DNA of 62,471 bases, filler included. It is 6 parts of 6 records of this genome, joined end to end, with 100 filler letters (N's around TTAATTAATTAA, not from the genome) between each part and the next. Parts side by side here need not be neighbours in the genome. Positions count along the whole stretch, not along the records: positions 13,754 to 32,481 come from SRR31156797_10596; 5 more parts are not named here. One strand, 5' to 3'. The notes under the pieces were generated by a model. That model was not told the DNA's origin. It did not search any database and saw only the letters and a list, made by a program, of their open reading frames with translations. The stretch's first letter is position 1; every line of letters begins with the position of its first letter. Shown piece after piece: positions 13,654-31,599 of the stretch. A program made the translations under genes and the position numbers.

Positions 13654-13753
13654 NNNNNNNNNNNNNNNNNNNNNNNNNNNNNNNNNNNNNNNNNNNNTTA
13701 ATTAATTAANNNNNNNNNNNNNNNNNNNNNNNNNNNNNNNNNNNNNNNNNNNN
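13654..13753. other. Artificial contig spacer
   Basis: N44-TTAATTAATTAA-N44 (stops in all six frames); GC content drops sharply across it. Confidence 0.98.
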
Positions 13754-15133
13754 AATAAACTCAACCTCTTCATGGTGCATATGGATAAACCCTTTCTCTT
13801 TTGCAGCTTTTACCACGGCTTCTGCAACTGGATGAAAGTAATGCTCTTCTGCACTTGCTGTAAGATTTAAAATATCCTCTTCACTCCATGCATCATCAAA
13901 ACTATTGACTTTTTCAACTTCAAGTTGTCCATAAGTTAAAGTTCCTGTTTTATCAAATACTAAAGTATCTACAGAGCTTAAAGCCTCAATAGATTTTGCC
14001 CCTTTGATCATAATTCCATCTTTTCCAGCTTTAGAAATAGAAGATTTAAAAGCAACTGGGGTTGCTAACTTCAAGGCACACGAATAATCAGCTTGTAATA
14101 CAGCTGCTACATTTTCAAAATCTCTACTAATCAAATAAGAAAGCCCAGCAAGTCCAAGGGTCACAGGCACCAACTTATCAGCTAATCTTGTAGCTTTTAA
14201 TCCAATAGCAGATTTTTCATTGAGTGAGCTGGTAATATAGTTTTTAATCCTTGCCGTTGCTGTATCTTCTCCCACATGCTCAGCCCAGATCTTTATACGA
14301 CCATCTTCTACTACTGTTCCAGAGATAACTCTATCTCCTCTTTGCTTATTGATAGGTTCAGACTCACCTGTCATAGAGACTTGATTCACAGAAGCATTTC
14401 CTGAGACTATATGCCCATCAATTGCAATAGTGTCTCCAGCTCCTACGATCACAAGATCCCCTACTTTGATATCTTTTGTATCGATAAGCTTTTGGGTCAT
14501 TTTCCCATTCTCTTCAACTTCAATCCACGCTTGTTTTACATTTGGTTTAGCAAGCTCTTTAATAAGGTCATCTGATCTATGAACGGTAGTCTCTTCTATA
14601 TATTCACCAAGTTCAAGCATCGCATTGGTTCCATTGGCTGCTAGATAATCTTTTCTTGCAAAAGAGACCCCTACAGCTGTAGCTTCTAAAACCTTTGAAG
14701 TAAGTCCTTCTGTAAATAGCTCTTTAGTACCTTCAAACAATAAAGGTTTGATAGCTGCAAGAGTTATAAGAAACTTTGCAGTTTCATTTGAAAGCATAGG
14801 TTCAACACTTAAAGCAGTTCCTGCACGTGCAACTCCAAATAAACTTGGCTTTTCGTCAACACAAGAGATACACTCCCCTAAAAATGTTTCACAGGTTTTA
14901 AACTTATTAATATCAAGATTTTTTAATAGTTCATCTATAATATCTTCAGCACTCCCATCATGTTCTATTACGATTGAACCAATCGTTTTATTGATCCGAA
15001 CACTTTTGATCCCATTGATCGATTTCATATGATTTATTAATGCTAATTGATTAAAATCTTCTTTTAAAAATTCAATTGAATATCGTACCCGTTTGGCTGT
15101 TTTATGAAGTAGTTTGATATCTTTGTTCTCCAT
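13754..15133 (-). CDS. fezB: P1B-6-type heavy-metal ATPase, ferrosome FezB-like (3' partial)
   Basis: N-terminal R-rich motif LHKTAKRVRY, TGES, ADYSCALKLATP (DYSC signature), DKTGT, EEHYFHP. Confidence 0.8.
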
Positions 15134-15141
15134 ACTAGCTC

Positions 15142-15489
15142 TTAAGCATTTTGCTCCGCTTCAAGCTCTGCTTGGGCATCTTCAAATCGTTCTTTCATCT
15201 CTTCTAAACCTGCACTAAACATTGACCCACCTTTAGCTACAGTTTTAAAGATAGCTTTTTGGGCTTTTTCATTTGTAAGTAGATATGCTCCAGCAACACC
15301 AATTAATGCTCCTATTAAAAACTGATTAGTATCGAATGAGCCTAAAAGATTTGTATTGTTTGTAGTTGTTGTATTATTGATATATGGATTTGTATTTTGT
15401 AATCCAATATCAGCATTATTCATATTCTCTACACTTTGTGTATTTTGTGCAATATAAGGGTTTGTATCGAATGGTTTATTAGTTTGCAT
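15142..15489 (-). CDS. Small GxxxG membrane protein with helical tail (FezA/YtxH-like)
   Basis: FLIGALIGVAGAYLL followed by an amphipathic helix (AGLEEMKERFEDAQAEL); immediately upstream of the P1B-6 ATPase. Confidence 0.7.
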   Translation of the reverse strand: MQTNKPFDTNPYIAQNTQSVENMNNADIGLQNTNPYINNTTTTNNTNLLGSFDTNQFLIGALIGVAGAYLLTNEKAQKAIFKTVAKGGSMFSAGLEEMKERFEDAQAELEAEQNA

Positions 15490-15494
15490 ATGTT

Positions 15495-15836
15495 TTATTC
15501 TCCTACTTCTATTTGTTTTAAATCTTCATCATTTTCATTAAATACTTTTTCATTAATTTTTTCAACTGCATAGATACCTGCAGCACCTAAAGAAAGTACT
15601 GTAAGCATCCCAAAAATATTTTTATTTGCATAATATTGTGTGGCACTAAGTGCAGATGATGTAGCAATAGCTCCTTGAACACCTAGCTTTAAAGAGTTTT
15701 TTGCAACATATGAAGGTGAGATCTCACCTTTTTTTAATTTATCATAATTGATGATTCCTGCAATTGCAGCAGCACTTGCTGCACCTTTTGCTACATCAGT
15801 AGCTGAGATTGTGGGAAGTGTTTGATTATTTGTCAT
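15495..15836 (-). CDS. MamC-like membrane protein (fez-associated)
   Basis: GAASAAAIAG-N..KLKKGEIS....K..LG.QGAIAT pattern resembling MamC-family proteins; ATG overlaps the end of the upstream ORF. Confidence 0.6.
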   Translation of the reverse strand: MTNNQTLPTISATDVAKGAASAAAIAGIINYDKLKKGEISPSYVAKNSLKLGVQGAIATSSALSATQYYANKNIFGMLTVLSLGAAGIYAVEKINEKVFNENDEDLKQIEVGE

Positions 15837-16074
15837 CCATTTTCTCCTCAACTACTACTGGTTCTTCATTTTTCTTTGGCTTTAAACAATCAACTTTTTC
15901 ACTCATTGTTGCTTTTACATCCCCTGCAATCTCTTTTGTTTTTTCATAACTAGAACTTGCAACCTCTTGTACTTTTTTGGCTCCACTTTTTACACTACTT
16001 CTGATTTTTTTATTATTGTTATATGCGACTACTGCTACAGCTCCTGCTGCTAGTCCTGCGACAAATGGTAACAT
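15826..16074 (-). CDS. Small GxxxG membrane protein
   Basis: MLPFVAGLAAGAVAVVAY plus a Lys-rich helical tail; GAGGAG RBS. Confidence 0.7.
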   Translation of the reverse strand: MLPFVAGLAAGAVAVVAYNNNKKIRSSVKSGAKKVQEVASSSYEKTKEIAGDVKATMSEKVDCLKPKKNEEPVVVEEKMDDK

Positions 16075-16077
16075 CTT

Positions 16078-16176
16078 TTACTCCTCTTTTTTTGATTTAG
16101 ATTTTTTATTTTTCTTAAGCAGATAGATCACTGCTCCACCGATAACTGCTCCAACTGCAAATGGTACTAAGGGCAT
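16078..16176 (-). CDS. Unannotated 32-aa GxxxG micro-membrane protein
   Basis: MPLVPFAVGAVIGGAVIYLLKKNKKSKSKKEE*, AGGAGG RBS; fills the gap between neighbouring genes. Confidence 0.75.
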   Translation of the reverse strand: MPLVPFAVGAVIGGAVIYLLKKNKKSKSKKEE

Positions 16177-16185
16177 ACTTTCCTC

Positions 16186-16959
16186 CTAAACATCTTCTTG
16201 GACTTCATTTTGTTTATTTATTTGAGAAAACACAGACATCCCAACAACCCCTAATAAAGCTCCTCCTATAAATGAAAGATTTGTATTACTTAGTACTTTT
16301 AAAAGATCCTCTTGAGAGATCTGGCCTGAAGCAAACTTTCCTGCTAAGTCATTAAACTCATTCATCTTATCCATCATATTTTCACCTGTTGTATGTGCTG
16401 AATACTGAGCATAGATATTGCCTAGATCGACTTGCGTATTGGAATGTTGTGCAACACACTTTCTAAATGCTGGGAGATGATTATTATAAGATGCTGCTTG
16501 AAGTTGAAAAAGTACATCTTTGATATCTGGATATTGATCCACATATAAAAGAAGATTGTCATACATCTTTATATTATCAATCTCAGCTGCCACTCCAACT
16601 TCACAACATTCAAGTAGAGTATTTGGAAGCTCTATCTTCTCATACCAATTATTTATAGGAGCAGGTACATTATATTTTACAAGGAGCGGTTCAAGGGCAC
16701 TAAAGTGTCTTACTTCTGCTTGGATAATATTTAAAAATGATGGTACATTGCCAAAAGTCTCAATCGTTTTACGATAGGTTTCATAGGCATGAAACTCATC
16801 ATACACTGCAATTCGTAGTACCTGATGTAAAATAGGTTCATTATAATTCTCATCAACACGAAGTCCAACTAAAAGTTCCTCATCAAAATTTTTTGTAGGG
16901 ATACTATTTTGTTCTGTTGTGTTATCCACCTCTTCTTTTACCTGTGGATCATTTTCCAT
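16186..16959 (-). CDS. Ferritin-like (DUF2202-type) protein with C-terminal GxxxG TM (FezD-like)
   Basis: YDEFHAYETY, AEVRH (ExxH), GVAAEIDN, ASYNNHLPAF; C-terminal FIGGALLGVVG. Confidence 0.75.
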   Translation of the reverse strand: MENDPQVKEEVDNTTEQNSIPTKNFDEELLVGLRVDENYNEPILHQVLRIAVYDEFHAYETYRKTIETFGNVPSFLNIIQAEVRHFSALEPLLVKYNVPAPINNWYEKIELPNTLLECCEVGVAAEIDNIKMYDNLLLYVDQYPDIKDVLFQLQAASYNNHLPAFRKCVAQHSNTQVDLGNIYAQYSAHTTGENMMDKMNEFNDLAGKFASGQISQEDLLKVLSNTNLSFIGGALLGVVGMSVFSQINKQNEVQEDV

Positions 16960-17279
16960 TATACCACCTCCTTTTCTAAACTATTTAAAATACCTGATAT
17001 CTGCTCTAGGTTTTTTTGAGCAAGAAGATCTTCCCAAAGCTCATATGGGAAAATGCTATTATCATAATTCACCGTGATTGAACCTATCGCTTTATTTATC
17101 TTGATATTTTGAATACCATTGATCTTCTGTGGTAAACTTTGAATATCTTCAATAGTAATACCACTTTGGGTAGCTTCGTTTTTTATCTTTGGACTCACCC
17201 TAACTCGAATCCTCCCTTTTATATGGTGAATCTTTGTAAGATATGATGAAATCTTTATGATATTGTCAACTGTAACCAT
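16959..17279 (-). CDS. Stand-alone HMA-like domain protein with R-rich motif (FezC-like)
   Basis: IHHIKGRIRVRV...GIQNIKINKAIGSITVNYD, the same pattern as the ATPase N-termini. Confidence 0.7.
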   Translation of the reverse strand: MVTVDNIIKISSYLTKIHHIKGRIRVRVSPKIKNEATQSGITIEDIQSLPQKINGIQNIKINKAIGSITVNYDNSIFPYELWEDLLAQKNLEQISGILNSLEKEVV

Positions 17280-17355
17280 TCTTTTTTATCTCTCCTCTAT
17301 CGAATTATTCTTTTTATAACTTAAAGTATTCCTTAATATAAAGTAAGAATTAGTA

Positions 17356-19566
17356 TCATGTTTTTTGTTTTGCAAGAGCTAATTTACTTGAGTTTGCCAT
17401 GATCCCTACAGTATGACCTATATGGATCGCTCCAGCAGCCACTGGACTTAAAAGTCCTACACTAGCAAAAGCAACTCCTCCTAAGTTTGTTCCTGTTCCT
17501 ATCCAGTAATTTTGATTTACTACTTTTAAGCTTTGTTGGCTCAGTTCATACAAATAGCTTACATCTTCAGGATGAGAATGAGTAATTGCAATATCAGAAA
17601 CTGCAATTGCTGCTTCACTTCCTCCTGCTGCAAAAGAGATCGCCACATCAGCTTTACTCATAGCAAAAGTATCATTCACTCCATCTCCTACCATCACTAC
17701 TTTGTTATACTTTTTCTTTAAGTCTTCAATCGCTTCAGCTTTACCATGTGGAGTTTGATTGGCATACACTGAATCAAAATGAAAATCTAAAGCAAAGGCA
17801 TTGGCTACTTTTACTTCATCTCCAGTAAGTAATGCAATATGTTTCACTCCATTTGCTCTTAAGTTTTCAATCATCTGCTTTGTTCCATCTCGTACTTCAT
17901 GCTCAAAGCTCATCAGACCTAAAAGCTCTTTATTTTTGGCTACAAAAACAACTGTTTTCCCACTATCATGAAACTGGCTCATTTGAGCTTTATACTCTTT
18001 GGTAGATATTTTATAGCGTGAAAAAAGATTTTTATTTCCTATTAAAATCTCATCTTCACCTATAGTCGCTTTTACCCCATATCCAGGGATCACTTCACTT
18101 AAAGTACATTGATCAATTGCTATTCCACAAGATTTTGCATGATCTACAATTGATTTGGCTATTGGGTGGGAGTTTCGATATTCTGCTATCGCTGCATATT
18201 TGACCAACTCTTTTTCATCCACGTTTGGCATAGTTAAAAGATCTGAGACCATTGGCTTTCCAGTAGTAAGTGTCCCTGTTTTATCAAAACAAAAAACATC
18301 AGCCTTTGAGACATTTTCCAGTGCATCTCCACCTTTAATTAAGATCCCATTTTTTGCTCCATTTGAGATCCCTGCACTTATTGCGGTTGAGGCTGCAAGT
18401 ACTGTAGCACAAGGGCAAGACATTACGATCATTACAGCAAAGGCATTGATAAGTGATCCTGTAAATAAAAAAGTTCCAACTGTTAGGGTAGTCCCTAGTT
18501 TTAAAAGTCTTGAAGCTAACTTATCAGCTTCTAGTTCACTAGAAGATTTTAAAGCAAGACTTGCCTCTACTTCTTTCATAGTACGAGAAATATAAGTGGA
18601 GTTTCCAACACCACTTACCTTGATATAAATTCGACCTTTTTCACAAATAGTCCCTGCAAATACTTCCTCATCAATTTGTTTAAAATCTGGCTCACTTCGT
18701 CCATTGATTATAGCTTCATTAATCTCCGCACTTCCATCACTAATGATTCCATCAACTGGGATCTTCTCACCACTTCTACTGACAACAATATCTCCCACAT
18801 TGATATCTTCAATATCTACTTCGATCTCCACATTATCTTGTAACACATATACTTTTTTGACATCTAATTCCACAAGTTTATGGATCTCATCTTTTGATTT
18901 TGTAGCGATATACTCTTCTAAAAGCATCCCACCTCTTAGGATATAGATGATCTCAAAAGCAGCTGTGACTTCCCCAAAGAAAATAGCTAGTACTAACGTT
19001 CCACCCATAAAAGTATGAAGGCTAAATTTTCCCTCTTGTATATCATCAAAAGATTCTTTTAAAAGTGGAAGTGCTGCTACAAGGGCAACAGCAGCTGTAA
19101 GTGAAAATGGACTAGAAGCCAAGGCAACTCCTAAAATAGTCTCTTGCACAAAAATATATACAGCATATACAGTAAGCAGTCCAAACTCTATCAGTTTTCT
19201 TTTCCAAGATTTTGAAGAGACCTCTTTTATCTCGCATCTGCTACAACTACTACTTGATCCGCAAATAGCACTTGGAGTAGCCTGTGATAATTCAATTTTT
19301 GGAAGTTTTTCATAAAAAAGAATTTTAAGTTTTGTAAGTATTTCATCTAATGAAATATTCTCTTGATAGGTAAAAACAATGGAGCTACATTTTATATTTT
19401 CTCGAAAGGTTATGAAGTGATTTTCAAGTTCACTTTGTATCTTTTCAAGATTTTTTTGACTCCCAAAAAGATCTGATTTAAGCCTTACTCTATTATTAGC
19501 AATGCTTTTAACTGTTATTCCATCTATGAGACTATATTGTTGCAGGTTATTTTGTTCAAGCTTCAT
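17356..19566 (-). CDS. Second P1B-type heavy-metal ATPase (CPC type, atypical actuator motif)
   Basis: SCPC, DKTGT, SHP, TGD, GDGVND. NGRS replaces TGES. HIGHT in the last TM; N-terminal NNRVRL. Start overlaps the fur stop. Confidence 0.88.
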   Translation of the reverse strand: MKLEQNNLQQYSLIDGITVKSIANNRVRLKSDLFGSQKNLEKIQSELENHFITFRENIKCSSIVFTYQENISLDEILTKLKILFYEKLPKIELSQATPSAICGSSSSCSRCEIKEVSSKSWKRKLIEFGLLTVYAVYIFVQETILGVALASSPFSLTAAVALVAALPLLKESFDDIQEGKFSLHTFMGGTLVLAIFFGEVTAAFEIIYILRGGMLLEEYIATKSKDEIHKLVELDVKKVYVLQDNVEIEVDIEDINVGDIVVSRSGEKIPVDGIISDGSAEINEAIINGRSEPDFKQIDEEVFAGTICEKGRIYIKVSGVGNSTYISRTMKEVEASLALKSSSELEADKLASRLLKLGTTLTVGTFLFTGSLINAFAVMIVMSCPCATVLAASTAISAGISNGAKNGILIKGGDALENVSKADVFCFDKTGTLTTGKPMVSDLLTMPNVDEKELVKYAAIAEYRNSHPIAKSIVDHAKSCGIAIDQCTLSEVIPGYGVKATIGEDEILIGNKNLFSRYKISTKEYKAQMSQFHDSGKTVVFVAKNKELLGLMSFEHEVRDGTKQMIENLRANGVKHIALLTGDEVKVANAFALDFHFDSVYANQTPHGKAEAIEDLKKKYNKVVMVGDGVNDTFAMSKADVAISFAAGGSEAAIAVSDIAITHSHPEDVSYLYELSQQSLKVVNQNYWIGTGTNLGGVAFASVGLLSPVAAGAIHIGHTVGIMANSSKLALAKQKT

Positions 19567-20020
19567 TTTTTTTACACTCTTTACAAATCCCATATAACAT
19601 CATCGTATGACTTTGAAGTTTAAATCCATTTTCATGTGCCACAAGCTCTTGGATCTTTTCAAGTTCTGCATCATAAAACTCAACAATTTTGTTACATTTT
19701 ATACATACCATATGGTCGTGGTGGGGTTTAAGATTGAGTTCATATACTTTAAAATCTTGTCCATTTATTGCTATTGCTTTTATGATATTTAACTCTTCTA
19801 AAAGACTTAATATTCTATAAACTGTTGCAATTCCTATAGTTACATTATAAGTATTTTTCACTCGTTGTAAAACTTCATCTGCATTAAGATGTCCCTGGTT
19901 ATCAAATAAAACTTTCAATACATATTCCCTTTGCACTGAATTGTTTAAACCTAATGATCTAATCATATCTTTAAATTTGTAGATAAACTCATCATATTCA
20001 AGTAGCAGTTCTTTTTGCAT
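19556..20020 (-). CDS. Fur-family transcriptional regulator (cluster-specific paralogue)
   Basis: GIATVYR, HHDHMVCIKC, YGICKEC. Confidence 0.9.
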   Translation of the reverse strand: MQKELLLEYDEFIYKFKDMIRSLGLNNSVQREYVLKVLFDNQGHLNADEVLQRVKNTYNVTIGIATVYRILSLLEELNIIKAIAINGQDFKVYELNLKPHHDHMVCIKCNKIVEFYDAELEKIQELVAHENGFKLQSHTMMLYGICKECKKNEA

Positions 20021-20087
20021 CAAATCCCCATTCTCATTTTATATAACTGGAATCATATCAACAGTTTTCTTTAAGTTTCTTTAATAG

Positions 20088-20102
20088 TGATAACAATTAT
20101 CA
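20088..20102. promoter_or_regulatory. Fur box between the fur/fez operon and the NiCoT operon
   Basis: TGATAACAATTATCA, one mismatch to the 7-1-7 TGATAATnATTATCA. Confidence 0.7.
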
Positions 20103-20224
20103 TAATATACTATTTTAGAGTATATTGATCTTGATTCTTATTTCTATTACAATTTAGGTAACCATAATGTAATTTTTACTTGCTAAGATTCGCCCACAAA
20201 ATCATCTTTTAAAGGTTCCAATGA

Positions 20225-20965
20225 GTGGATATTTATAATAATTTTTTAAATCAAATTATCAGTTGGCAACAAACTATCAATTACACTATTACAAACTATT
20301 TTGACCTTTTAGAAAGTGGAGATAGTACTATGTATTTTTATATTTTGGCTGTTGCTTTTGTCTATGGCTTAGTTCATGCTTTAGGACCTGGACATGGAAA
20401 GATGATAATAGCTAGCTATTTTTTAGTAAAAGGTGCTAAAACAGCAGAAGCTTTAAAAGCAGGTTTTTTAACAGCTCTTATCCATACCCTCTCTGCTCTT
20501 AGTATCACTGGGATATTATTTGTATTTTTTCAAAATACCATAATGGAATATTTTCAAAATATCAATGCCAATATGTATAAAGTTTCTGCTATCTTTATTA
20601 TCCTTATAGCTTTTTTTCTACTCTATGAAACAATAAAAGATAGAAATATACAAGAGGAATCTATATCAAACAATGAAGTACAAAATAAAAACATATGGAG
20701 TATCGCTTTAACTATTGGAATAGTTCCCTGTCCAGGAGTTATGACCATTGTTCTTTTTTCTATGATCTTAGGATATGTATATCTTGGGATCTTAAGTGCA
20801 ATTATGATGAGTATAGGGATGGGGATCACTATCTCCTTAGCTGCAATACTTACTACAAAAATAAGAAGAAAAAATCAAAATAACAGGTATAGAAAACTTT
20901 TTCAATGTTTAAGCTATGTTGGTATTATAGTACTTTTTTCTCTTGGAATAAGTTTACTTGTATGA
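20225..20965 (+). CDS. RcnA/HoxN-like (NiCoT) metal transporter
   Basis: YGLVHALGPGHGK, IHTLSA, IVPCPG; multiple TM segments. Confidence 0.82.
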   Translation: MDIYNNFLNQIISWQQTINYTITNYFDLLESGDSTMYFYILAVAFVYGLVHALGPGHGKMIIASYFLVKGAKTAEALKAGFLTALIHTLSALSITGILFVFFQNTIMEYFQNINANMYKVSAIFIILIAFFLLYETIKDRNIQEESISNNEVQNKNIWSIALTIGIVPCPGVMTIVLFSMILGYVYLGILSAIMMSIGMGITISLAAILTTKIRRKNQNNRYRKLFQCLSYVGIIVLFSLGISLLV

Positions 20966-21444
20966 AAAGCTTTCTTCTTTTGTCTTTATTTTTTTTACAG
21001 CTTTATGCTCATCCCCATTTTTTTATTGATGCTTCTATTGATATCCAAAAAGAAAAGATCATTCATACATGGGGATTTGATAAGATCAATTCAAGGTTAC
21101 TTATCTTTGATTTTGATACCAATAAAAATAATAGTTTTGAAAAAGAGGAGCAAGAGAAGTTTTTACAAACCCATTTTGATAAACTTCATAATGATAACTA
21201 CAACCTTTTTTTAGATATTGATGGAGAAGAGATTCAAGCACTTCCAACACAAAAAACTATTTTTATAAAAGATAGACAAGTCTGGCTCTCTTTTGAACTT
21301 CCAATACCAATTAAAAAAAATGGAGTCATTTGTACTATTGATTCCACTTTATATTTTGCCTATAAATTGCAAAATATGAATTCAATCTTTACTTATGAGA
21401 TTCAAAAAAGTGAACACGATTATTGTATAGGAGTCACAAAATGA
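20962..21444 (+). CDS. DUF1007-like periplasmic metal-binding protein
   Basis: Signal peptide then AHPHFFID; ATGA overlap with the transporter. Confidence 0.72.
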   Translation: MKSFLLLSLFFLQLYAHPHFFIDASIDIQKEKIIHTWGFDKINSRLLIFDFDTNKNNSFEKEEQEKFLQTHFDKLHNDNYNLFLDIDGEEIQALPTQKTIFIKDRQVWLSFELPIPIKKNGVICTIDSTLYFAYKLQNMNSIFTYEIQKSEHDYCIGVTK

Positions 21445-21755
21445 AAATTTTAATCACAAGTATATTGGCATCTTTATCGCTCTTTGCTCATCCTGTAAGT
21501 TATACTGTAAATTTAGAAGCAAAATATGATGAAGTAAAAAAAGAGCTAAAAATTATATGTAAAAGCAACATAAGAAATAAATGTGGCTTACATAACTTCC
21601 ATCTTCTTTCACAAGATGATAAGATTTTTCAAACTGAAAAGTTCCCTTTTTTAAAAAATGAGATTATAGTAAATAACCTAAAGTCAAAACCTTATAAAAT
21701 GATCTTTTTTCTTAGAAAAATCCCTGAACATACTTATAATGTAATAGTACAATAG
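21441..21755 (+). CDS. Hypothetical exported protein with predicted mature N-terminal His-Pro
   Basis: MKILITSILASLSLFA|HPV; ATGA overlap. Confidence 0.65.
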   Translation: MKILITSILASLSLFAHPVSYTVNLEAKYDEVKKELKIICKSNIRNKCGLHNFHLLSQDDKIFQTEKFPFLKNEIIVNNLKSKPYKMIFFLRKIPEHTYNVIVQ

Positions 21756-21757
21756 AT

Positions 21758-21856
21758 CTATTTTTTAAGACCTATTGTATTTTGTGGGATTATCCCTGCT
21801 TCTATTTTCATCTTTTGAATTTTTTTTAAAAGTTTTTCTACATCATACTGTTGCAT
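21758..21856 (-). CDS. Putative 32-aa small protein
   Basis: MQQYDVEKLLKKIQKMKIEAGIIPQNTIGLKK*, AGGGGG RBS; overlaps the end of the upstream gene. Confidence 0.4.
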   Translation of the reverse strand: MQQYDVEKLLKKIQKMKIEAGIIPQNTIGLKK

Positions 21857-22304
21857 AACATCCCCCTTGTGAACAACTTTTTACTTGTGCATCTCTTATA
21901 ATTGAGTTTAATGAATAAGGGATAATTTTGATCTTATACTCATCTTTACATTGCTCTTCTAGAGTTGGAATTTTAAGCTCGATATGTTTCATAAACTTTT
22001 CATTTTTAGGACACACGATATACACTTGTGCTATCTCATCATTTTGATCTAAAATCGCTTCTGATGCTTTATATACTTCATCATTGAGATATTGTAACTC
22101 TTGCTTATTTACCTCTTTAAAAGAGGGAATAACTCTTACAGCACTACTATTAAATGGAAGAATATCTATATACCCCTCCCCTTTTTGTACATATCTATTT
22201 TTTTGATCTCTTGCAATTTTTTTATATACAAACTCAAAAAAATTGTTTTGTTTTGACAACTCAGGATTTAATCCTATCAATACACTACACTCATTAAAAC
22301 TCAT
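21843..22304 (-). CDS. Hypothetical protein
   Basis: 153-aa ORF with AAGGA RBS, downstream of the DUF2325 gene. Confidence 0.65.
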   Translation of the reverse strand: MSFNECSVLIGLNPELSKQNNFFEFVYKKIARDQKNRYVQKGEGYIDILPFNSSAVRVIPSFKEVNKQELQYLNDEVYKASEAILDQNDEIAQVYIVCPKNEKFMKHIELKIPTLEEQCKDEYKIKIIPYSLNSIIRDAQVKSCSQGGCYATV

Positions 22305-22322
22305 TATTACTTCCTTTTAATT

Positions 22323-22646
22323 TTATCTTTGACAACTTCCATCTTTATCCATAAACTTACAAAATTCACAAAACACTGAACTACTACTTCTTTTCGAACA
22401 GATATAAGGAATATTTTTCTTTTTTGCTTCGTTTTTAAATTTATACATCACATTATGATTTAAAAAATCTGTGAGCATCAACACACAATCTGTATCTTGT
22501 GGGATATCTTTTTTACACGCACCTGTTTTTTTCCTTGTATTCCAGTGAGTTACACTATCTGCACCGAGATCTGTTAGAACTGTTTTTATAGTATTGACTT
22601 TATCACCACCAATAACAAGAACATTCATTGATTCATTAACACTCAC
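22323..22646 (-). CDS. DUF2325-family protein
   Basis: VLVIGGD..IPQDTDCVLMLTDFLNHN..AKKKNIP..SKRS; GTG start after AGGAG. Confidence 0.75.
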   Translation of the reverse strand: MSVNESMNVLVIGGDKVNTIKTVLTDLGADSVTHWNTRKKTGACKKDIPQDTDCVLMLTDFLNHNVMYKFKNEAKKKNIPYICSKRSSSSVFCEFCKFMDKDGSCQR

Positions 22647-22665
22647 AAACTCTCCTTTTTTATTT

Positions 22666-22680
22666 TGATAATCATTATCT
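22666..22680. promoter_or_regulatory. Fur box
   Basis: TGATAATCATTATCT, one mismatch to the 7-1-7 consensus, 20 bp from the DUF2325 start. Confidence 0.8.
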
Positions 22681-22723
22681 ATATGGAATAATAAATAAAA
22701 ATCTCTTAAACAATACTTAATTT

Positions 22724-22738
22724 TGATAGCAATTATCA
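22724..22738. promoter_or_regulatory. Second Fur box upstream of fur
   Basis: TGATAGCAATTATCA. Confidence 0.6.
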
Positions 22739-22797
22739 ATTTAATCTTTTTAAAAAAAATTCGATATAATTAAAGAACAATATAAAAAAGGTTTTTA

Positions 22798-23235
22798 ATG
22801 CAAAACAATTCTGAAGTTATTGATAAGTTAAAAGAAGTGATTAAACAAAAGGGATTAAAATATACAAAACAAAGAGAGATCATCCTTGAAACAATTCTTG
22901 ATAGCGATAAGCATTTAAGTGCTGAAGATCTTTATAAACTGATCCAAGAAAAACACCCAGATGAAAAAATAGGAATTGCTACAGTCTATAGAGCCGTGTC
23001 ATTTTTAGAAGACTCTGGACTTATCTCTTCTATTTCACTTGATAAAGATACAAAAAAGTTTGAGACAAACTTTAAAGAACACCATGACCATCTTATTTGT
23101 GTAAAATGCAATAAAATCGTAGAATTTGTGAATGAAAAGATTGAAAAAGAGCAAGATAAAATAGCAAAGAAAGAAGGGTTTAAACTTATGGACCATGCTA
23201 TGTATCTTTATGGTGTATGTAAAGATTGTCAATAG
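22798..23235 (+). CDS. fur: Ferric uptake regulator
   Basis: LKYTKQRE, HLSAE, IGIATVYR, HHDHLICVKC, YGVCKDC; closely resembles Campylobacterota Fur. Confidence 0.88.
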   Translation: MQNNSEVIDKLKEVIKQKGLKYTKQREIILETILDSDKHLSAEDLYKLIQEKHPDEKIGIATVYRAVSFLEDSGLISSISLDKDTKKFETNFKEHHDHLICVKCNKIVEFVNEKIEKEQDKIAKKEGFKLMDHAMYLYGVCKDCQ

Positions 23236-23303
23236 TTTTTCTCTCTAATTTATAATTTATTTTTTCGATGTAAAATTATTTATAAAATATTAAAGGAGTA
23301 CAA

Positions 23304-23909
23304 ATGATTTATGATGTACTAATAATAGGTGGAGGTGCTGCAGGATATAGCTGTGCATTAACTTTATCTTCAGTTGAAAACACCCAAGAGTGGGCAAAAG
23401 AGAAAAAGTATCTTATGCTTGATAATGGAAAGAGTGATATCTTAAAAGCGAGCTTTTTTAATGTCCCTGGGGTTGATCTTGGGATTGGAGGAGACTCTTT
23501 ACTTCACAAGATGCAAACTCAGCTTCAAAACTTTGATTCATGTGAGACAAAAAATGAAACAGTTACAAGCCTTGAAAAACAAGATGATACTTTTACAGTA
23601 ACAACTGAACTTAATAGCTATGAAACAAAGATTGTAGTTTTAGCAACAGGGATGCACTCTTTTGATATCGAAACAGACCTTGTTTCTGTACAAGAACATA
23701 CTGATGTGATGAAACCAAATAAAGTCTGTTTAAAAAACCAAGACAATCTTATAAGTGAAAACCTCTACGTAGCAGGACTTGCTAGTGGAGCAAAAACAAT
23801 GTTTGCAATCGCAAGTGGTGAGGGAAGTAAAGTTGCGTGTCAAATCTTTAAAATATGGACAGGAAAACCAGCAGTAGCTCATGATACCCTTAAAGATAGA
23901 TTACTCTAA
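23304..23909 (+). CDS. Short FAD-dependent pyridine nucleotide-disulfide oxidoreductase
   Basis: DVLIIGGGAAG, VLATG, LYVAG..FAIASGEG. Confidence 0.78.
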   Translation: MIYDVLIIGGGAAGYSCALTLSSVENTQEWAKEKKYLMLDNGKSDILKASFFNVPGVDLGIGGDSLLHKMQTQLQNFDSCETKNETVTSLEKQDDTFTVTTELNSYETKIVVLATGMHSFDIETDLVSVQEHTDVMKPNKVCLKNQDNLISENLYVAGLASGAKTMFAIASGEGSKVACQIFKIWTGKPAVAHDTLKDRLL

Positions 23910-23975
23910 TCTATCCTCTTTAGAGATTCATCAAACTTCTTATGTTATTTTATTTCAAACTAAAAAGAGGTATTT

Positions 23976-25208
23976 ATGAATTTTAAAAATCTTGTCTTCC
24001 CCATATCATCTTTATTTTTTGCTATAGCTTTTTTAGCTGTTGGATATGGGATGATCCTTACTTTTGTGGGGGTTTACCTAAAAGAGCTTCAAGTCTCAAA
24101 TACTATTATTGGTCTTATCAATGCTTCATTTTTCCTTGGAGCAATTAGCTCTTCAATTTTTAGTCAAAAAATTATTTCAAGTGTAGGGCATATACGAAGC
24201 TTTGCTGCTTTTACCTCTTTGATGGTGATCTCCTTTTTAGTTCATGCTTTATTTTATGATCCCTATCTTTGGGGAACTCTACGGTTTATCTCAGGTTTTT
24301 CTTTTTATTCTTTATTAATTATCCTTGAAAGCTGGCTCAATGAAAAAAGTGATGAAGAAAGCAGAGGAAAAATCCTTGCAATTTATACTATCATCTTTTA
24401 TCTCTCCACTGCTCTTGGGCAACTTTTTTTAAATATGGATGATAAGTTTAAATCTTTTATCTTTGTGATTGGATCAGTTTTAGTTTTATTTTCAGTGATA
24501 TTTATCTCCCTTACAAAAATAAAAGAGCCTGATCTTAAACCATTTGAGCACTACTCTTTACCAAAAGTACTCTCTGTGGTACCACTTGCTACAGTGACCA
24601 GTTTTATTGGTGGATTTTTTGTGGGCGGTTTTTTTACTATGATCCCTGTATATCTTATCATGACCTTTAATTCTATTGAGGTAGTTTCCTATTTTATGCT
24701 GATCTCAATCCTAGGAGGACTTCTTTCTCAATGGCCAATAGGTCTACTGTCAGATAAATATGGAAGAAGAAAATTGATCGCCTATTCAGCTCTTAGTACA
24801 GTATTTTCCTCTTTACTTTTTATCCTCTATCCATCTAATATAACACTTACATATATCTTTGGATTTTTACTTGGACTTACTATCTTTTCACTTTACCCAC
24901 TTGGAGTAGCACGTGCAAATGATGTAGTAGATGAGAATAAAGATATTGTAGAAATTAGTAGAACTCTACTTTTTACCTATGGGATAGGATCATTTTTAGC
25001 TCCTATTATTATAGGGTATGGTCTTGGCCTATTTAGTTGGTTTTTATTTGCTTGTTTTTTCGTACTTGGAACGTTTCTTTATTTTTACTCTTTATCAAAA
25101 GAAAAAATACCAGATGAAGACATGAGTACTTTTATCAATATTCCTGTAATTTCTGGTTCAGAACTCCCTGGTCTTGATCCAAGACAAGATGAAGAAACTG
25201 AGAAATAA
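23976..25208 (+). CDS. MFS transporter (YcaD-like)
   Basis: About 12 TM; VGHIRSFAA, ESWLNE, QWPIGLLSDKYGRR. Confidence 0.85.
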   Translation: MNFKNLVFPISSLFFAIAFLAVGYGMILTFVGVYLKELQVSNTIIGLINASFFLGAISSSIFSQKIISSVGHIRSFAAFTSLMVISFLVHALFYDPYLWGTLRFISGFSFYSLLIILESWLNEKSDEESRGKILAIYTIIFYLSTALGQLFLNMDDKFKSFIFVIGSVLVLFSVIFISLTKIKEPDLKPFEHYSLPKVLSVVPLATVTSFIGGFFVGGFFTMIPVYLIMTFNSIEVVSYFMLISILGGLLSQWPIGLLSDKYGRRKLIAYSALSTVFSSLLFILYPSNITLTYIFGFLLGLTIFSLYPLGVARANDVVDENKDIVEISRTLLFTYGIGSFLAPIIIGYGLGLFSWFLFACFFVLGTFLYFYSLSKEKIPDEDMSTFINIPVISGSELPGLDPRQDEETEK

Positions 25209-25210
25209 AA

Positions 25211-25235
25211 AAAGGTAAGCTTTACACTTACCTTT
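25211..25235. terminator. Probable bidirectional intrinsic terminator
   Basis: AAAGGTAAG..CTTACCTTT hairpin between the convergent MFS and dps genes. Confidence 0.6.
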
Positions 25236-25254
25236 ATATTTAAAATAGTTTTTA

Positions 25255-25689
25255 TTATGCTAGAGATGCTTTGATCATCCAAATATCTTTTTCAAATTTT
25301 GCAATTTGCTCATCTGCAAATCCAACTGTTGCTTTATCTCCAACACTATCTGCCTCTTCAGAAAGCTCACGAAAGTGTTTTAAAAAGTGTTCAAAATCTG
25401 CTAATACTGATTCTAATACTTCTATTGCATTAAACTCTGTTTTAGACTCCTCTTTGATACAACTATTTGCCATAACATCTGTCATTGTTACATATGGTTT
25501 TTCACCAAGTTGTAATACTCTCTCAGCTGCATCATCATATAACGTAGCCATTGAGTTATACATCCCCTCTGTCATCTCATGAATTGGGTAAAACTGCATC
25601 CCTTTAATATTCCAGTGTAAGTTGTGTAACTTTACAAACATCGTTAAAGCATCTGCTTGAATTGTTTTTAATTTTTCTATAGTTTTCAT
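25255..25689 (-). CDS. dps: Dps family DNA-protection/iron-storage protein
   Basis: KLHNLHWNIKGMQF..HEMTE..DDAAER..EKDIWM. Confidence 0.93.
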   Translation of the reverse strand: MKTIEKLKTIQADALTMFVKLHNLHWNIKGMQFYPIHEMTEGMYNSMATLYDDAAERVLQLGEKPYVTMTDVMANSCIKEESKTEFNAIEVLESVLADFEHFLKHFRELSEEADSVGDKATVGFADEQIAKFEKDIWMIKASLA

Positions 25690-25730
25690 TTTTATCTCCT
25701 TTAAAAAACTTAATCAAATTATTCCATAAA

Positions 25731-25745
25731 GGAAAATAATTATCA
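25731..25745. promoter_or_regulatory. Possible Fur/PerR box upstream of dps
   Basis: Minus strand TGATAATTATTTTCC, two mismatches to consensus. Confidence 0.45.
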
Positions 25746-25800
25746 ACTATAAAAAAATATAGTTCTTTAAATTTAGGGATCTTTAAGTAAAGGATAAATA

Positions 25801-26313
25801 TTATCCTTTATTATTGAATAGATTACGAATCCCACCAGTAAATTTTGCTAACTGTAAAGCTGAAAATCCTAAAAAGCTTTGAGATTCTAAATCAGCTCCA
25901 CGATCTACAAGATAATCTACTATTCTCTTATGTCCAAACATTGCTGCAAACATTAAAGGGGTTTTACCCCCTCCATTATCTGCATCAATATCTGCTCCAT
26001 ATTTTAAAAGGAGCTCTACCATCTCTATATTTCCTTTAAAAGCAACTCCACCTAAAGGGGTTTGTCCTCGATCGTTTCTTTTATTGACCCCTGCTCCATA
26101 TTGTAAAAGCATCTGCGCAGTTTCAAAACTCCCATTATAAGTAGAGAGCATCAAAAGGGTATTTCCTTTTTCATCTGAGAGATTGACATTAAGACCTGAG
26201 CAAATCATACTCTCTAAAGTATAAGTATCATTTGCCCTTGCTAAATCTAAAGCCATAAGCTGAAGCTCTAGATATCTTTCCTCTTCCTCTTGTGTTAATT
26301 GTATCGCTTCCAT
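25801..26313 (-). CDS. Ankyrin-repeat catalase accessory protein (Cj1386/AnkB-like)
   Basis: GNTLLMLSTY, GQTPLGGVAFKG, GKTPLMFAA ankyrin repeats, directly downstream of catalase. Confidence 0.85.
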   Translation of the reverse strand: MEAIQLTQEEEERYLELQLMALDLARANDTYTLESMICSGLNVNLSDEKGNTLLMLSTYNGSFETAQMLLQYGAGVNKRNDRGQTPLGGVAFKGNIEMVELLLKYGADIDADNGGGKTPLMFAAMFGHKRIVDYLVDRGADLESQSFLGFSALQLAKFTGGIRNLFNNKG

Positions 26314-26314
26314 T

Positions 26315-27745
26315 TTAGATCCCTAAAGCTTTTTTTACTCCAGCAGCATAGTCACTATGAACTTTTTCAAAAAGCGCTACTTGTCTTTTTACAATATCAC
26401 TTGGAACTCCATCCATCGCCTCAGCAATATTACTAAAAAGTTGCTCTTTTTGTGACTCATTCATAAGATTAAATAGTACTGTTACTTGTGAGTAATGATC
26501 CTGCGTATCTTCAAGATGATCATATCTATATCCATCACCATTTACTGGGAATGAAGGCTCAACATACTGTTTATCTTCTACAGGTCCATTAAAACTATTT
26601 GGCTCATAATACGCATCTTTTCCTATTGGGTTATCAAATCTCATTGGACCATCTGCATGATAAGTATTGACTTCACTTAATGGACGATTTACTGGAAGTG
26701 ACTCATAATGGGTTCCTATTCTATATCTATGAGCATCCGCATATGAAAATACCCTTGCTTGAAGCATCTTATCAGGGGACCAACTAATCCCTGAGACTAC
26801 ATTTGATGGACTAAATGCTGATTGCTCGATCTCTGCAAAATAGTGTTTTGGATTACGGTTAAGTTCCATCTCCCCAACTTTTATCATAGGATACTCTTTA
26901 TGTGGCCATACTTTTGTAAGATCAAAAGGATTAAATGGTGCATTTTTAGCTTGCTCTTCACTCATAATCTGGATCTCAAAACTCCACTTTGGAAAATCAG
27001 CATTTTCAATCGACTCATAAAGATCTCTTTGTGAACTCTCTCGATCTTTTGCTACAATTGCTTCTGCTTCAGCATTGCTAAGGCACTCTATCCCTTGCAT
27101 TGTTTTAAAGTGAAATTTTACCCAAAACCTCTCCCCTGCTTCATTGATAAGTGAGTAAGTATGCGATCCGTATCCATTCATATGTCGTAAAGTCTTTGGA
27201 ATACCACGATCAGACATAAGAATAGTTAACTGGTGAAGTGATTCAGGTGATAAAGACCAAAAATCCCACATAGCTGTTGCACTTCGTAGATTTGTTCTAG
27301 GGTGTCTTTTTTGAGTATGTATAAAATCTGGAAATTTGAGTGCATCTTTAATAAAAAAAACTGGTGTATTGTTTCCAACAAGATCCCAATTTCCCTCTTT
27401 CGTATAAAACTTTAAAGCAAATCCTCTTACATCTCTCTCTGCATCTGCTGCACCTTTTTCACCTGCTACTGTTGAGAATCTTGCAAGCATAGAAGTAGTT
27501 TCCCCTTTTTGTAAAGCTTGTGCTTTTGTATATTTGCTAATATCTTCAGTGATAGTAAGTGTTCCATAAGCACCACTCCCGTTAGCATGAACTACTCGCT
27601 CAGGGATTCTTTCTCTATTTTGATGTGCTAACTTTTCTAATAACTGATAGTCTTGCATCAATAAAGGCCCACGACTCCCTGCACTTAGTGAATTTTGATT
27701 GTCTCCGATTGGATTTCCTGCTGTTGTTGTCATTTGTGTTTTCAT
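26315..27745 (-). CDS. katA: Monofunctional heme catalase
   Basis: [42 protein letters not shown]. Confidence 0.96.
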
Positions 27746-27899
27746 AGATACCCCTTTTAGATTATGGAAAAATTTTATCCTTTAGAACTTTACAGGAAAG
27801 CGAGTTGTTAAATAATAAATAGAAATAGTCAGTTTAGATTTTTTATCTAGGTATAAGAAAAAATAATAATGATTCTTAAAATGAATAGATGTTTTCTTA

Positions 27900-27914
27900 T
27901 TTACTTTTATTTAC
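27900..27914. promoter_or_regulatory. OmpR/CpxR-type direct repeat
   Basis: TTTAC-N5-TTTAC (GTAAA-N5-GTAAA on the minus strand) about 70 bp upstream of the Spy-like gene. Confidence 0.4.
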
Positions 27915-27983
27915 CTTCACTTGAACTAGCAGATAACTTCATATTTTATAATTCTAATATCCAAACAAAATAAGGAGTTTCCA

Positions 27984-28409
27984 ATGAAAAAACAAATTTT
28001 AACAATCGGTTTAGCATTTTTAGTTGCTAGTAGTTCAGTATATGCATTTGGTGGATTTGACAGAGGTTCAAACTGCGGTGGAAAAATGATGAATAAATCA
28101 TTTATGAAAAGCCAAGGAAATGGTATTCATAGTGTAATGGCAATTGTGTCTGATATGGATTTAACAAGTTCACAATGGACTGAAATTAGAAAAACAATGC
28201 TTGATATGAAAAAGCAAAGACTAGATAATAGTGAAAATGTAATGTCAATCTCTTTTAATAAAGATGGATCTTTTGATAAAGAGCAGTTTGTAAAAGAGCA
28301 TACAGCTTTTTCTAAAGATATGATTGATACTCAATCAAAAGCAATTGAAAAAATCGTTTCTATTTTAAATGAATCACAAAAAGAGATACTAATCTCTAAA
28401 TTAAAATAA
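27984..28409 (+). CDS. Periplasmic Spy/CpxP-like protein
   Basis: Signal peptide, Gly/Met-rich N-terminus, LTSSQ and LNESQ (LTxxQ-like) motifs. Confidence 0.65.
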   Translation: MKKQILTIGLAFLVASSSVYAFGGFDRGSNCGGKMMNKSFMKSQGNGIHSVMAIVSDMDLTSSQWTEIRKTMLDMKKQRLDNSENVMSISFNKDGSFDKEQFVKEHTAFSKDMIDTQSKAIEKIVSILNESQKEILISKLK

Positions 28410-28425
28410 GAATCGAGACAATACT

Positions 28426-28950
28426 ATGAAACAAAGATACTCAAATAGTGCAATTTTATTGCACTTGGTATCTGGACTACTAATCTTATTTGTTCTAGTA
28501 ACAGGTAGTTTAGTATTATCAGAGCTTCCTAATACAATAGAGAAAATCAGCTCTTTTAGAGTTCATATGATTTTAGGTCTTATAATAACTCTTTTAACAA
28601 TTATTAGAATTGTAGTGATTGTAAAGTCTGAAAAACTTGAACCTTTAAAAGTAAGTAGCTTTAGACAAAAGTTAATTAAGTTTAATCATATTGCTATTTA
28701 TGTTGTTCTACTTCTAATAGGACTTAGTGGTATTTTACTCTCAAAAACATCAGGTCTTGGGGAGATAGTATTTTTTGGATCAGATGCACAGCTTTATGAG
28801 AGTTTTAAAGATTATGGTGTAGGTATTGCACATGGTGTTTTAACAAAAGTGCTACTATTTTTAATAGTGATGCATATAGTTGGTGTATTTTCTTATAAAT
28901 TTAAAACAAAAGAGAGTATTCTACAAAGAATGTGGTTTAACTCAAAATAA
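28426..28950 (+). CDS. Cytochrome b561-family protein
   Basis: RYS..AILLH, VHMILG, FNHIAIY, AHG...MHIVG; 4 TM. Confidence 0.8.
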   Translation: MKQRYSNSAILLHLVSGLLILFVLVTGSLVLSELPNTIEKISSFRVHMILGLIITLLTIIRIVVIVKSEKLEPLKVSSFRQKLIKFNHIAIYVVLLLIGLSGILLSKTSGLGEIVFFGSDAQLYESFKDYGVGIAHGVLTKVLLFLIVMHIVGVFSYKFKTKESILQRMWFNSK

Positions 28951-28960
28951 GGAGCTTTTC

Positions 28961-29650
28961 ATGATAGAGGCTAAACATCTGCAAAAAGTATATAAAGTAG
29001 GTGAACTTGATCTTACTGTTATAAAAAATTTATCTTTAGAGATAAAAAAAGGTGAATTTATTTCAATCATAGGTCCAAGTGGTAGCGGTAAATCAACGCT
29101 ATTAAATATGCTTGGATGTTTAGATACTCCATCAAGTGGAGAACTAAAGATAGACTCTAATCAGATCAGCAGTTTTAATAAAACAAAACTAGCCCAGTTT
29201 AGAGGAGATAATATAGGGTTTATCTTTCAAAGTTTCAATTTAATACCGGTTTTAAGTGTATATGAAAATATTGAATACCCTTTAATTATGATTCAAAATC
29301 TCTCTGAAGATGAAAGAAAAAAAAGAGTATTGAAACTTCTTGAAGAGGTTGGGATGATTGAACAAAAAGACAAGACTCCAGATAAAATTTCAGGGGGACA
29401 GATGCAAAGAGTTGCTATTGCAAGAGCATTGGTCACAAATCCAAAGATTGTTTTTGCAGATGAGCCAACAGCAAATCTTGATAGTAAAACAGCCCATAAG
29501 ATCATTGAACTTATGAAAAGAATCCAAAAAGAGCATAGTACAACTTTTGTATTTGCTACACATGATGAGAAGATAGTTTCAAATGTTGATAGATTGATCA
29601 CTTTGATAGATGGTGAAATTGTTGAAGATAAAAGGACAGATCATGAGTAA
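28961..29650 (+). CDS. ABC ATP-binding protein (LolD/MacB-like)
   Basis: GPSGSGKS, ISGGQMQR, ADEPTANLD. Confidence 0.9.
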   Translation: MIEAKHLQKVYKVGELDLTVIKNLSLEIKKGEFISIIGPSGSGKSTLLNMLGCLDTPSSGELKIDSNQISSFNKTKLAQFRGDNIGFIFQSFNLIPVLSVYENIEYPLIMIQNLSEDERKKRVLKLLEEVGMIEQKDKTPDKISGGQMQRVAIARALVTNPKIVFADEPTANLDSKTAHKIIELMKRIQKEHSTTFVFATHDEKIVSNVDRLITLIDGEIVEDKRTDHE

Positions 29651-30875: not shown

Positions 30876-30884
30876 GAAAACAAA

Positions 30885-31598
30885 ATGAAAAAACTATTAC
30901 TAGCGATTTTTACACTAAGTTCTATCTATGCACAAGATATTTTAGTGCAGATAGATAAAAACATGGCACCAGGAAGCAGTGAAAGTTATAAAAAACTTAT
31001 TAATATAGAACCTGATGGAAGTAAAAAAGAGTTTTTACTCTATCAGGCAAGAAAAGATAGTGATAAGATGGTATCTGCTTTTTTACAACCTGACTCAGAA
31101 AAAGGGAGAACCACACTAAGAGTTGGTGATAATATGTGGCTCTATCTTCCTGAAGTTGGAAAAGCGATACGGATCACTTCTATGCAAAGTGTAATAGGCG
31201 GTGTATTTAATAATGCCGATATTATGAGACTTGACTTTTCTGCTGAATATGATGTGGTAACGCAAAGCGAACAAGAAGATGAGATCACTGTTGAAACTAA
31301 AGCAAAAACTGAAACAGTAGCTTATGATAAACTGATCATCAAAGTAGATAAAAAAACAGTGACACCAAAAGAGATCAAATGTTATAGCTCAACAGGGATG
31401 CTTATTAAAACACTTTATTATAAAGATATAAAAGATTTTGGAAATGGGATCATTAGACCTGCTTTAGTTGAAACTGATAGTCCTTTATACAAAGGGTATA
31501 AATCGGTGATGATCTATGGAAAAATTACTCCAAAAGAGTTTAGTGATGAAGCTTTTACACTGGACAATCTTTCCAAAGTGGAGAACCTAAGAAGATAA
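30885..31598 (+). CDS. Outer membrane lipoprotein-sorting protein (LolA-like)
   Basis: Signal peptide; F..P.SEKG..TLR..NMWLYLP..IRI..FNNADI. Confidence 0.78.
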   Translation: MKKLLLAIFTLSSIYAQDILVQIDKNMAPGSSESYKKLINIEPDGSKKEFLLYQARKDSDKMVSAFLQPDSEKGRTTLRVGDNMWLYLPEVGKAIRITSMQSVIGGVFNNADIMRLDFSAEYDVVTQSEQEDEITVETKAKTETVAYDKLIIKVDKKTVTPKEIKCYSSTGMLIKTLYYKDIKDFGNGIIRPALVETDSPLYKGYKSVMIYGKITPKEFSDEAFTLDNLSKVENLRR

Positions 31599-31599
31599 A

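Follow-up and report, generated by a model that had tools for sequence, protein, structure and literature searches.

Few bacterial organelles are bounded by lipid. Ferrosomes are one of them, with experimental demonstration in only a handful of species. Deletion of the fez genes abolished lipid-bounded granules of iron, phosphorus and oxygen in Desulfovibrio magneticus, Shewanella putrefaciens and Rhodopseudomonas palustris, and the Shewanella fez operon alone made granules in Escherichia coli (available text of 10.1101/2020.01.10.902569). In Clostridioides difficile, FezA and FezB were both required and fezAB was repressed by Fur (available text of PMC12574912). The available text of the former source described fez clusters by GxxxG proteins, arginine-rich (R-rich) proteins, FezH, DUF2202 proteins with a C-terminal GxxxG, and Fur and FeoAB neighbours, and it defined FezB, a P1B-6 ATPase, by D[Y/F]SCA together with HNxxT in the transmembrane (TM) metal site; an N-terminal RxR was also noted for FezB (10.1101/2020.01.10.902569). 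Here we describe a nine-gene cluster found at the edge of one contig within a window of 62,471 nucleotides (nt), which was the whole stretch of DNA analysed. We consider it likely that this cluster was a ferrosome (fez) operon under the control of Fur, belonging to the extended type with FezH, from a member of the Arcobacteraceae. Thus, the locus belongs to an already published cluster type rather than to a new system, and adds a well-conserved member to it.

All published sequence features of fez clusters that could be checked were found at the locus, namely DYSCA, three RxR N-termini, GxxxG proteins, a FezH-type pump and linkage to Fur. They therefore supported the ferrosome-type reading proposed in the initial annotation, which had listed nine co-oriented genes; all nine were indeed on the minus strand, between 13754 and 20023. 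Open reading frame (ORF) calling gave a tightly packed series with intergenic gaps of -38 to +76 nt, so the packing was as expected of an operon. The R-rich strings named in the same annotation were located in the DYSCA ATPase (HKTAKRVR), in a protein of 106 amino acids (aa) (HHIKGRIRVR) and in a second ATPase with a CPC motif (NNRVRLK), and GxxxG motifs were present in the ferritin-like protein (residue 233) and in the 32-aa (residue 9), 82-aa (residue 7) and 115-aa (residue 60) proteins. In the motif scan of the operon proteins, strict GxxxG was absent from the 118-aa protein. The window was built of contigs chained by N spacers (paired runs of 44 N), with N runs at 13654-13753, 32482-32581, 39233-39332, 48224-48323 and 53759-53858. 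The contig carrying the operon (13754-32481) had a guanine-cytosine (GC) content of about 0.28-0.35, and the adjoining contig about 0.54. Since 13754 was the first base of this low-GC contig, the last ATPase gene was cut by the contig end.

The cluster was strongly conserved. A genome scan found relatives in 479 species genomes, and the best 80 loci, all of them close relatives, were kept. We counted co-oriented genes up to 6.5 kb upstream of fezB in those loci that had enough flank. The gene of the 106-aa HMA_2 protein and that of the DUF2202 ferritin-like protein were each present in 67/67 loci, the 82-aa gene in 62/70, the MamC-like gene (118 aa) in 71/71 and the 115-aa gene in 77/77. The core from the HMA_2 gene to fezB was syntenic in all 67 loci, nearly all of them from Campylobacterota. 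FezH was found in 22 of 57 loci at a threshold of at least 45% identity, and an adjacent Fur gene, ending at most 400 nt from the first cluster gene, in 30 of 54. The 32-aa gene was present in 11/69 loci, and FezH was present in all 11. Among orthologues, GxxxG was retained in 12/12 (32 aa), 64/64 (82 aa), 79/79 (115 aa) and 70/70 (DUF2202) sequences, and RxR in 67 of the 68 orthologues of the 106-aa protein. The gene arrangement was far beyond chance because it recurred in 67/67 related loci with enough flank, and the gene order of this cluster type was near-universal in Arcobacteraceae and neighbouring Campylobacterota.

By its sequence, the pump at the contig end was assigned to FezB, the P1B-6 ATPase. 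It had been described as a DYSC-type P1B ATPase, and DYSCA was indeed seen in it; the motif was invariant in a 19-sequence alignment and was present in 81/81 FezB-type ORFs of the loci and the window. The RVR at residues 15-17 lay inside the Pfam HMA_2 match. The frame was open throughout, with no internal break, and was 84.6% identical over 456 residues to the orthologue in the top genome locus (L001, from an Arcobacteraceae metagenome-assembled genome, MAG). All 72 full-length orthologues from the fetched loci (about 700 aa) carried D[YF]SCA, HNxxT and RxR, and among the 120 FezB matches listed these motifs were present in 116, 118 and 119, respectively. A search of the whole window found the FezB C-terminus encoded nowhere else in it. 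The PDB held no P1B-6 structure, and the nearest solved chains were CopA-type.

The second pump was FezH-like by its motifs (RVR, CPC and HIGHT) and shared 33% identity with FezB. HIGHT stood where the FezB orthologues have HNGTT, and both RxR and CPC were found in 24 of 24 family members. Among NCBIfam models the pump passed broad subfamily models only, including TIGR01525 (457.7 bits vs a cut-off of 346), and was far under the ZntA cut-offs (NF033775, 249.9 vs 1240; NF008262, 293.1 vs 1005). Its N-terminus was homologous to that of FezB (hhalign 97.9%, E 3e-13). The 106-aa protein, which had RIRVR, a Pfam HMA_2 match above the cut-off and no hydrophobic segment, matched the FezB N-terminus as well (hhalign 96.7%, E 4.6e-10). 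It follows from these two homologies that the R-rich motif belongs to one shared HMA_2-type module. The direct comparison of the FezH N-terminus with the 106-aa protein reached an hhalign probability of only 2.4%. As a separate observation, residues ~105-120 of the FezH-like pump held a conserved cysteine cluster (C-x5-C-x2-C in the family consensus) between the R-rich domain and the first TM helix. This cluster might form an additional metal site in the cytosol, and it was unmentioned in the available text of 10.1101/2020.01.10.902569.

The DUF2202 protein was predicted to be a ferritin-like four-helix bundle. The family profile matched MJ0754 (3q4n) with an E-value of 5e-7, and the AlphaFold2 (AF2) model, with a mean predicted local distance difference test (pLDDT) score of 79.7, retrieved MJ0754, bacterioferritins, a Dps-like protein and ferritins as top Foldseek matches. 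Family profile and fold search thus agreed with the earlier description of a ferritin-like protein with a GxxxG anchor. The three small GxxxG proteins were paralogues of one family that was weakly YtxH-like: hhalign linked the 32-aa protein with the N-terminal part of the 82-aa protein (96.7%), and the 82-aa with the 115-aa protein (92.7%, E 4e-7). The 115-aa protein combined a low-complexity N-terminus, a hydrophobic helix with GALIG and an amphipathic tail with a conserved EEMKER. Weak YtxH matches were found in 26 of 30 members of its family, which counted 578 representatives at 50% clustering, with GxxxG in 150/150 among those listed. In a profile search, this family extended to sulfur-oxidising Gammaproteobacteria and Thiobacillus. 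The characterised ferrosome species were absent among the matches listed in the three protein searches (FezB, MamC-like protein and 115-aa protein).

The 118-aa protein had been called MamC-like, and this was borne out at the family level. Its nearest Atlas clusters scored 0.95, with PF26373 MamC in 95-98% of their members. PF26373.1 was assigned to all 120 homologues listed, one of them named 'magnetosome protein MamC [Aliarcobacter butzleri]', and NF038051 MamC matched 28/30 family members (best E 2.6e-9). The local Pfam scan gave no match for the 118-aa protein, and that copy of Pfam probably lacked PF26373. Its AF2 model had three helices (pLDDT 82). No hhalign relation was found between this protein and the GxxxG proteins (probabilities of 3.8% and 10.9%).

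The first gene of the operon encoded a Fur-family paralogue. Its PF01475 domain was clear (E 5.5e-34), and it was under every NCBIfam equivalog cut-off (best 129.4 bits vs 200). A FastTree phylogeny covered 66 ORFs of the Fur family, taken from the loci and the window. In it, the operon Fur fell into a clade of 47, of which 37 were cluster-adjacent (support 1.0). A second Fur of the window fell into a separate clade of 19, with 18 not cluster-adjacent. The tree shows a distinct Fur paralogue lineage linked to the operon; related sequences share labels, so these were not independent events.

The Fur box noted upstream of the operon was found in its 7-1-7 form, in a 201-nt intergenic region common to the divergent NicO/DUF1007 genes (Table 1). 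The whole window held four matches to the 7-1-7 sequence TGATAATNATTATCA with at most two mismatches, vs 0.46 expected. Upstream of the cluster, boxes with at most one mismatch occurred in 22/66 loci vs 38/2000 random windows of the same loci, and those with at most two mismatches in 38/66 vs 96/2000. The classical 19-mer Fur consensus had no match at the operon upstream site within three mismatches. The promoter scan was uninformative, with 44 sites vs 43.6 in shuffles of the region. The second Fur-family gene lay at 22798-23235 on the plus strand, 2.8 kb from the operon; Fur-box-like sites with one and two mismatches were present upstream of it, at 22666-22680 and 22724-22738, and this upstream region overlapped with a divergent DUF2325 gene (22323-22739) at the 5' end of the latter.

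Table 1. Features of the predicted fez operon and its upstream region (positions along the window).
Feature	Position	Strand	Features and evidence
Sigma-70-like hexamers, TAGAAA-16-TATACT, 9/12, just upstream of the Fur box	20119-20146	-	consensus match only
Predicted Fur box, 7-1-7 inverted repeat	20088-20102	.	one mismatch to TGATAATNATTATCA
Regulator of the Fur family, 155 aa, first operon gene	19556-20023	-	Pfam FUR, E 5.5e-34
FezH-like P1B-ATPase, 745 aa	17356-19593	-	RVR 35-37, Cys cluster before TM1, CPC in TM4, HIGHT in last TM
R-rich HMA_2 protein, 106 aa, soluble, GRIRVRV	16959-17279	-	Pfam HMA_2, E 8e-9
DUF2202 ferritin-like protein, 257 aa, C-terminal hydrophobic GxxxG helix 226-247	16186-16959	-	profile, fold search
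GxxxG membrane micro-protein, 32 aa, Lys-rich tail	16078-16176	-	GxxxG in 12/12 orthologues
82-aa protein, N-terminal GxxxG anchor and charged helix, weakly YtxH-like	15826-16074	-	
MamC-family three-helix membrane protein, 118 aa	15495-15851	-	family models, AF2
115-aa YtxH-like GxxxG protein, FezA position, directly upstream of fezB	15142-15489	-	
Predicted FezB, P1B-6 ATPase, N-terminal 460 aa	13754-15133	-	R-rich HMA_2 N-terminus, DYSCA 349-353, DKTGT

Several points weighed against the assignment of this locus to ferrosomes. The HNxxT region of FezB lay past the contig end; in the full-length orthologues the motif was seen in 72/72 (71 HNGTT and one HNSTT). The loci and the window offered only two ATPase classes (81 DYSCA and 24 CPC) with no outgroups. 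The CPC pump was above the cut-off of the 'cadmium family' model TIGR01512 (336.9 vs 313.5 bits); for this pump, the initial annotation was right to expect the routine label of a cadmium/zinc ATPase. In the window copy, DUF2202 was under the Pfam cut-off (19.9 vs 22 bits, E 6.6e-4), and the window's own 118-aa copy had no NF038051 match at E <= 1. For the small proteins, any likeness to the experimentally studied FezA, C, D, E, F or G was one of position and features. This applied to the protein annotated as FezA-like, the 115-aa protein: its place directly upstream of fezB and its GxxxG features stood, and the FezA label goes no further than these. Lying between divergent operons, the predicted Fur box might control the NicO/DUF1007 genes rather than, or in addition to, the fez operon. 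Finally, no paper in the literature searched joined ferrosomes with Campylobacterota, Arcobacter or Epsilonproteobacteria, and granule formation in the phylum was unshown in that literature; the available text of PMC12574912 mentioned ferrosomes and Campylobacter without linking them, and a ferrosome preprint of 2026 made no mention of FezH, DUF2202 or Campylobacterota.

It is also conceivable, but unlikely, that the cluster was an iron operon without storage vesicles. In this case, FezB and FezH would rid the cell of surplus Fe(II) through the cell membrane in a PfeT-like manner, and the ferritin-like, MamC-like and YtxH-like proteins would act at the cell membrane, e.g. in iron detoxification of the periplasm or envelope where conditions are sulfidic and low in oxygen. 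Export from the cytosol is the normal direction for P1B pumps (available text of 10.1101/2020.01.10.902569), subcellular location is not fixed by sequence, and the Pfam and NCBIfam scans found no membrane-remodelling enzyme encoded in the operon. However, the fez deletions abolished granules in all three species mentioned above and the Shewanella operon sufficed in E. coli, and the low-iron induction implied by Fur repression suits storage or scavenging over detoxification.

An ordinary operon for Zn, Cd, Co or Ni efflux and resistance, with both pumps in the cytoplasmic membrane exporting metal to the periplasm, the small proteins as membrane accessories to them and no organelle formed, was quite unlikely. 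The regulator was of the Fur family rather than MerR or ArsR, with Fur boxes recurring upstream in relatives, and the DYSCA motif is the P1B-6 signature and not that of Zn/Cd pumps. Although the CPC pump passed both TIGR01525 and TIGR01512, and the closest solved structures were CopA, ZntA and a Cd pump, the ZntA model scored far under its cut-offs. The ferritin-like protein, and feoAB in L001, point to iron. The divergent neighbour in the window, a NicO-type Ni/Co transporter, would suit metal efflux, but it was not conserved beside the cluster: NicO was among the BLAST matches in 6 of the 80 loci and directly adjacent to the cluster in none, and in L001 the NicO and DUF1007 genes lay several kb away. 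As for a decaying or incomplete remnant, non-functional here because only 460 of ~700 fezB codons were present, it was very improbable since the truncation fell exactly at the contig end and N spacer, the remaining frame was open and highly similar to that of L001, and the eight other genes were intact with conserved motifs.

For the preferred ferrosome operon, we propose the following mechanism. At low iron, Fur would leave its predicted box and the operon would be transcribed; since the operon includes its own Fur paralogue, negative autoregulation would follow. Together with the MamC-family protein, the YtxH-like GxxxG proteins (32, 82 and 115 aa) might insert into a small cytoplasmic membrane vesicle and shape or coat it. 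FezB, and probably FezH too, would pump Fe(II) from the cytosol to the vesicle lumen at the expense of ATP. The R-rich HMA_2 modules, one per pump and one as the free 106-aa protein, could be shared units for sorting, docking or hand-over, while the membrane-anchored DUF2202 ferritin-like protein may handle or nucleate iron at the vesicle. The stored iron-phosphate would then be used during starvation at low oxygen. The fez features found at this locus comprise gene content, motifs, folds, packing, a Fur box and conservation; we infer granule formation by this organism from other species.

The initial annotation had called the contig Campylobacterota-like. The FezB fragment was 77-86% identical to proteins of about 700 aa from Arcobacteraceae MAGs, Halarcobacter ebronensis, H. 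anaerophilus and Candidatus Marinarcus, with Halarcobacter and Arcobacteraceae as the best named relatives of this FezB. L001 had 76% DNA identity to the operon across 3.1 kb and, beyond the operon, had the second Fur, the DUF2325 gene and one more neighbour in common with the contig. The designation was therefore correct, with Arcobacteraceae as the family. At the family level, the host is best taken as an uncultured member of the Arcobacteraceae. Downstream of fezB, L001 continued with a STAS-like gene followed by feoA and feoB. The best 80 loci were mostly labelled as Campylobacterota, i.e. Arcobacteraceae, Sulfurospirillum, Sulfurimonas, Sulfurovum and Campylobacter. Cultured carriers included Malaciobacter halophilus DSM 18005, M. 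canalis, Aliarcobacter vitoriensis, Arcobacter caeni and A. iocasae.

Other relatives came from less expected sources. Close homologues of FezB and the MamC-like protein were present in 'eukprot' transcriptome assemblies labelled Anaeramoba (P0021, P0027, P0122 and P0203), and in an Arcobacter MAG named Pygsuia-1 (L070). These homologues suggest that the same operon is carried by Arcobacteraceae living with anaerobic protists. In addition, six operons (L016, L021, L039, L053, L055 and L079), with FezB 62-68% identical, came from short contigs of MAGs that bore the labels Desulfurellales, Desulfosporosinus, Gammaproteobacteria, Helicobacter cetorum and Paceibacteria. They were either mis-binned Campylobacterota contigs or lateral transfers.

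Divergent from the fez operon, at 20225-21755 on the plus strand, there were genes for the NicO-type Ni/Co transporter, the DUF1007 protein and a 110-aa ORF. Physical linkage to the fez operon held for 13754-32481 only. With its contigs, at least six in number, falling into two GC classes (~0.50-0.60 and ~0.28-0.35), the window probably mixed two organisms or derived from a contaminated bin. Another low-GC contig carried tandem c-di-GMP-I-GGC riboswitch aptamers at 55632-55710 and 55821-55900 on the plus strand (67.8 and 59.8 bits), both at or over the gathering score.

The prefix SMUL_ used in some locus tags is one that we take to be that of Sulfurospirillum multivorans, a member of the Campylobacterota. 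Extended Data Fig. 5a gives SMUL_2748 as one of the nine FezB genes that serve as references and have conserved clusters (available text of 10.1101/2020.01.10.902569). If the prefix is what we presume, then the phylum was already covered bioinformatically. The small additions made here to the published picture were the MamC-family 118-aa gene, the paralogous trio of YtxH-like GxxxG proteins and the operon-linked Fur clade. Current annotation gives the genes of this cluster as 'heavy metal translocating P-type ATPase' and hypothetical proteins, with 'magnetosome protein MamC' in some cases.

More tentatively, and with doubts that outweigh our confidence, we suggest that Campylobacterota possess their own extended form of the ferrosome, with two pumps, an anchored ferritin-like protein, a paralogous GxxxG coat set, a shared MamC-family protein and a travelling Fur, and that the granules are in fact made. 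If this were true, such granules would be present in free-living, protist-associated and animal-associated Arcobacteraceae, in Sulfurospirillum and Sulfurimonas, and in some Campylobacter. The MamC-family member would then mark a membrane-protein toolkit common to ferrosomes and magnetosomes, an idea absent from the available preprint text. Since several cultured strains carry the operon, the extended FezH/DUF2202 form is directly testable.

In comparison to known systems, the likeness to magnetosomes lay in MamC (NF038051, PF26373). Both MamC and the 118-aa family are small membrane proteins of several helices and, on the ferrosome reading, both belong to an organelle for iron minerals. No other magnetosome gene was seen in the operon and, unlike for magnetosomes, no magnetite was implied here. 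The fezABC cluster of D. magneticus and the fezAB cluster of C. difficile likewise have a small single-helix GxxxG gene directly upstream of fezB. However, those clusters are minimal, whereas nine genes including an own Fur-family gene were present here.

The operons of S. putrefaciens and R. palustris have six genes (FezB, C, D, E, F and G), in which FezB is accompanied by a pair of GxxxG proteins as well as a soluble protein resembling a chaperone, according to the available preprint text. By that description, the 106-aa soluble R-rich protein fits FezD, and the GxxxG proteins fit FezE and FezG. Unlike in these two species, neither a FezC-like protein (HMA and two TM helices) nor FezF was found here, while FezH, the DUF2202 protein, the MamC-like protein and the Fur gene were extra.

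The experimentally tested fez operons described in the available text were three-gene and six-gene forms, whereas the extended type found here was surveyed there as gene clusters. The MamC-family gene and the 32-aa GxxxG micro-protein were unnamed in that text and may hide in its numbered groups or supplementary tables; the word 'MamC' occurred 0 times in the available text of 10.1101/2020.01.10.902569. In their main components, the extended clusters of Grant & Komeili and the present operon were alike: according to the same available text, those clusters likewise have a P1B-6 pump that carries DYSCA and is R-rich at its N-terminus, and beside it a second R-rich P1B pump whose transmembrane motifs are others.

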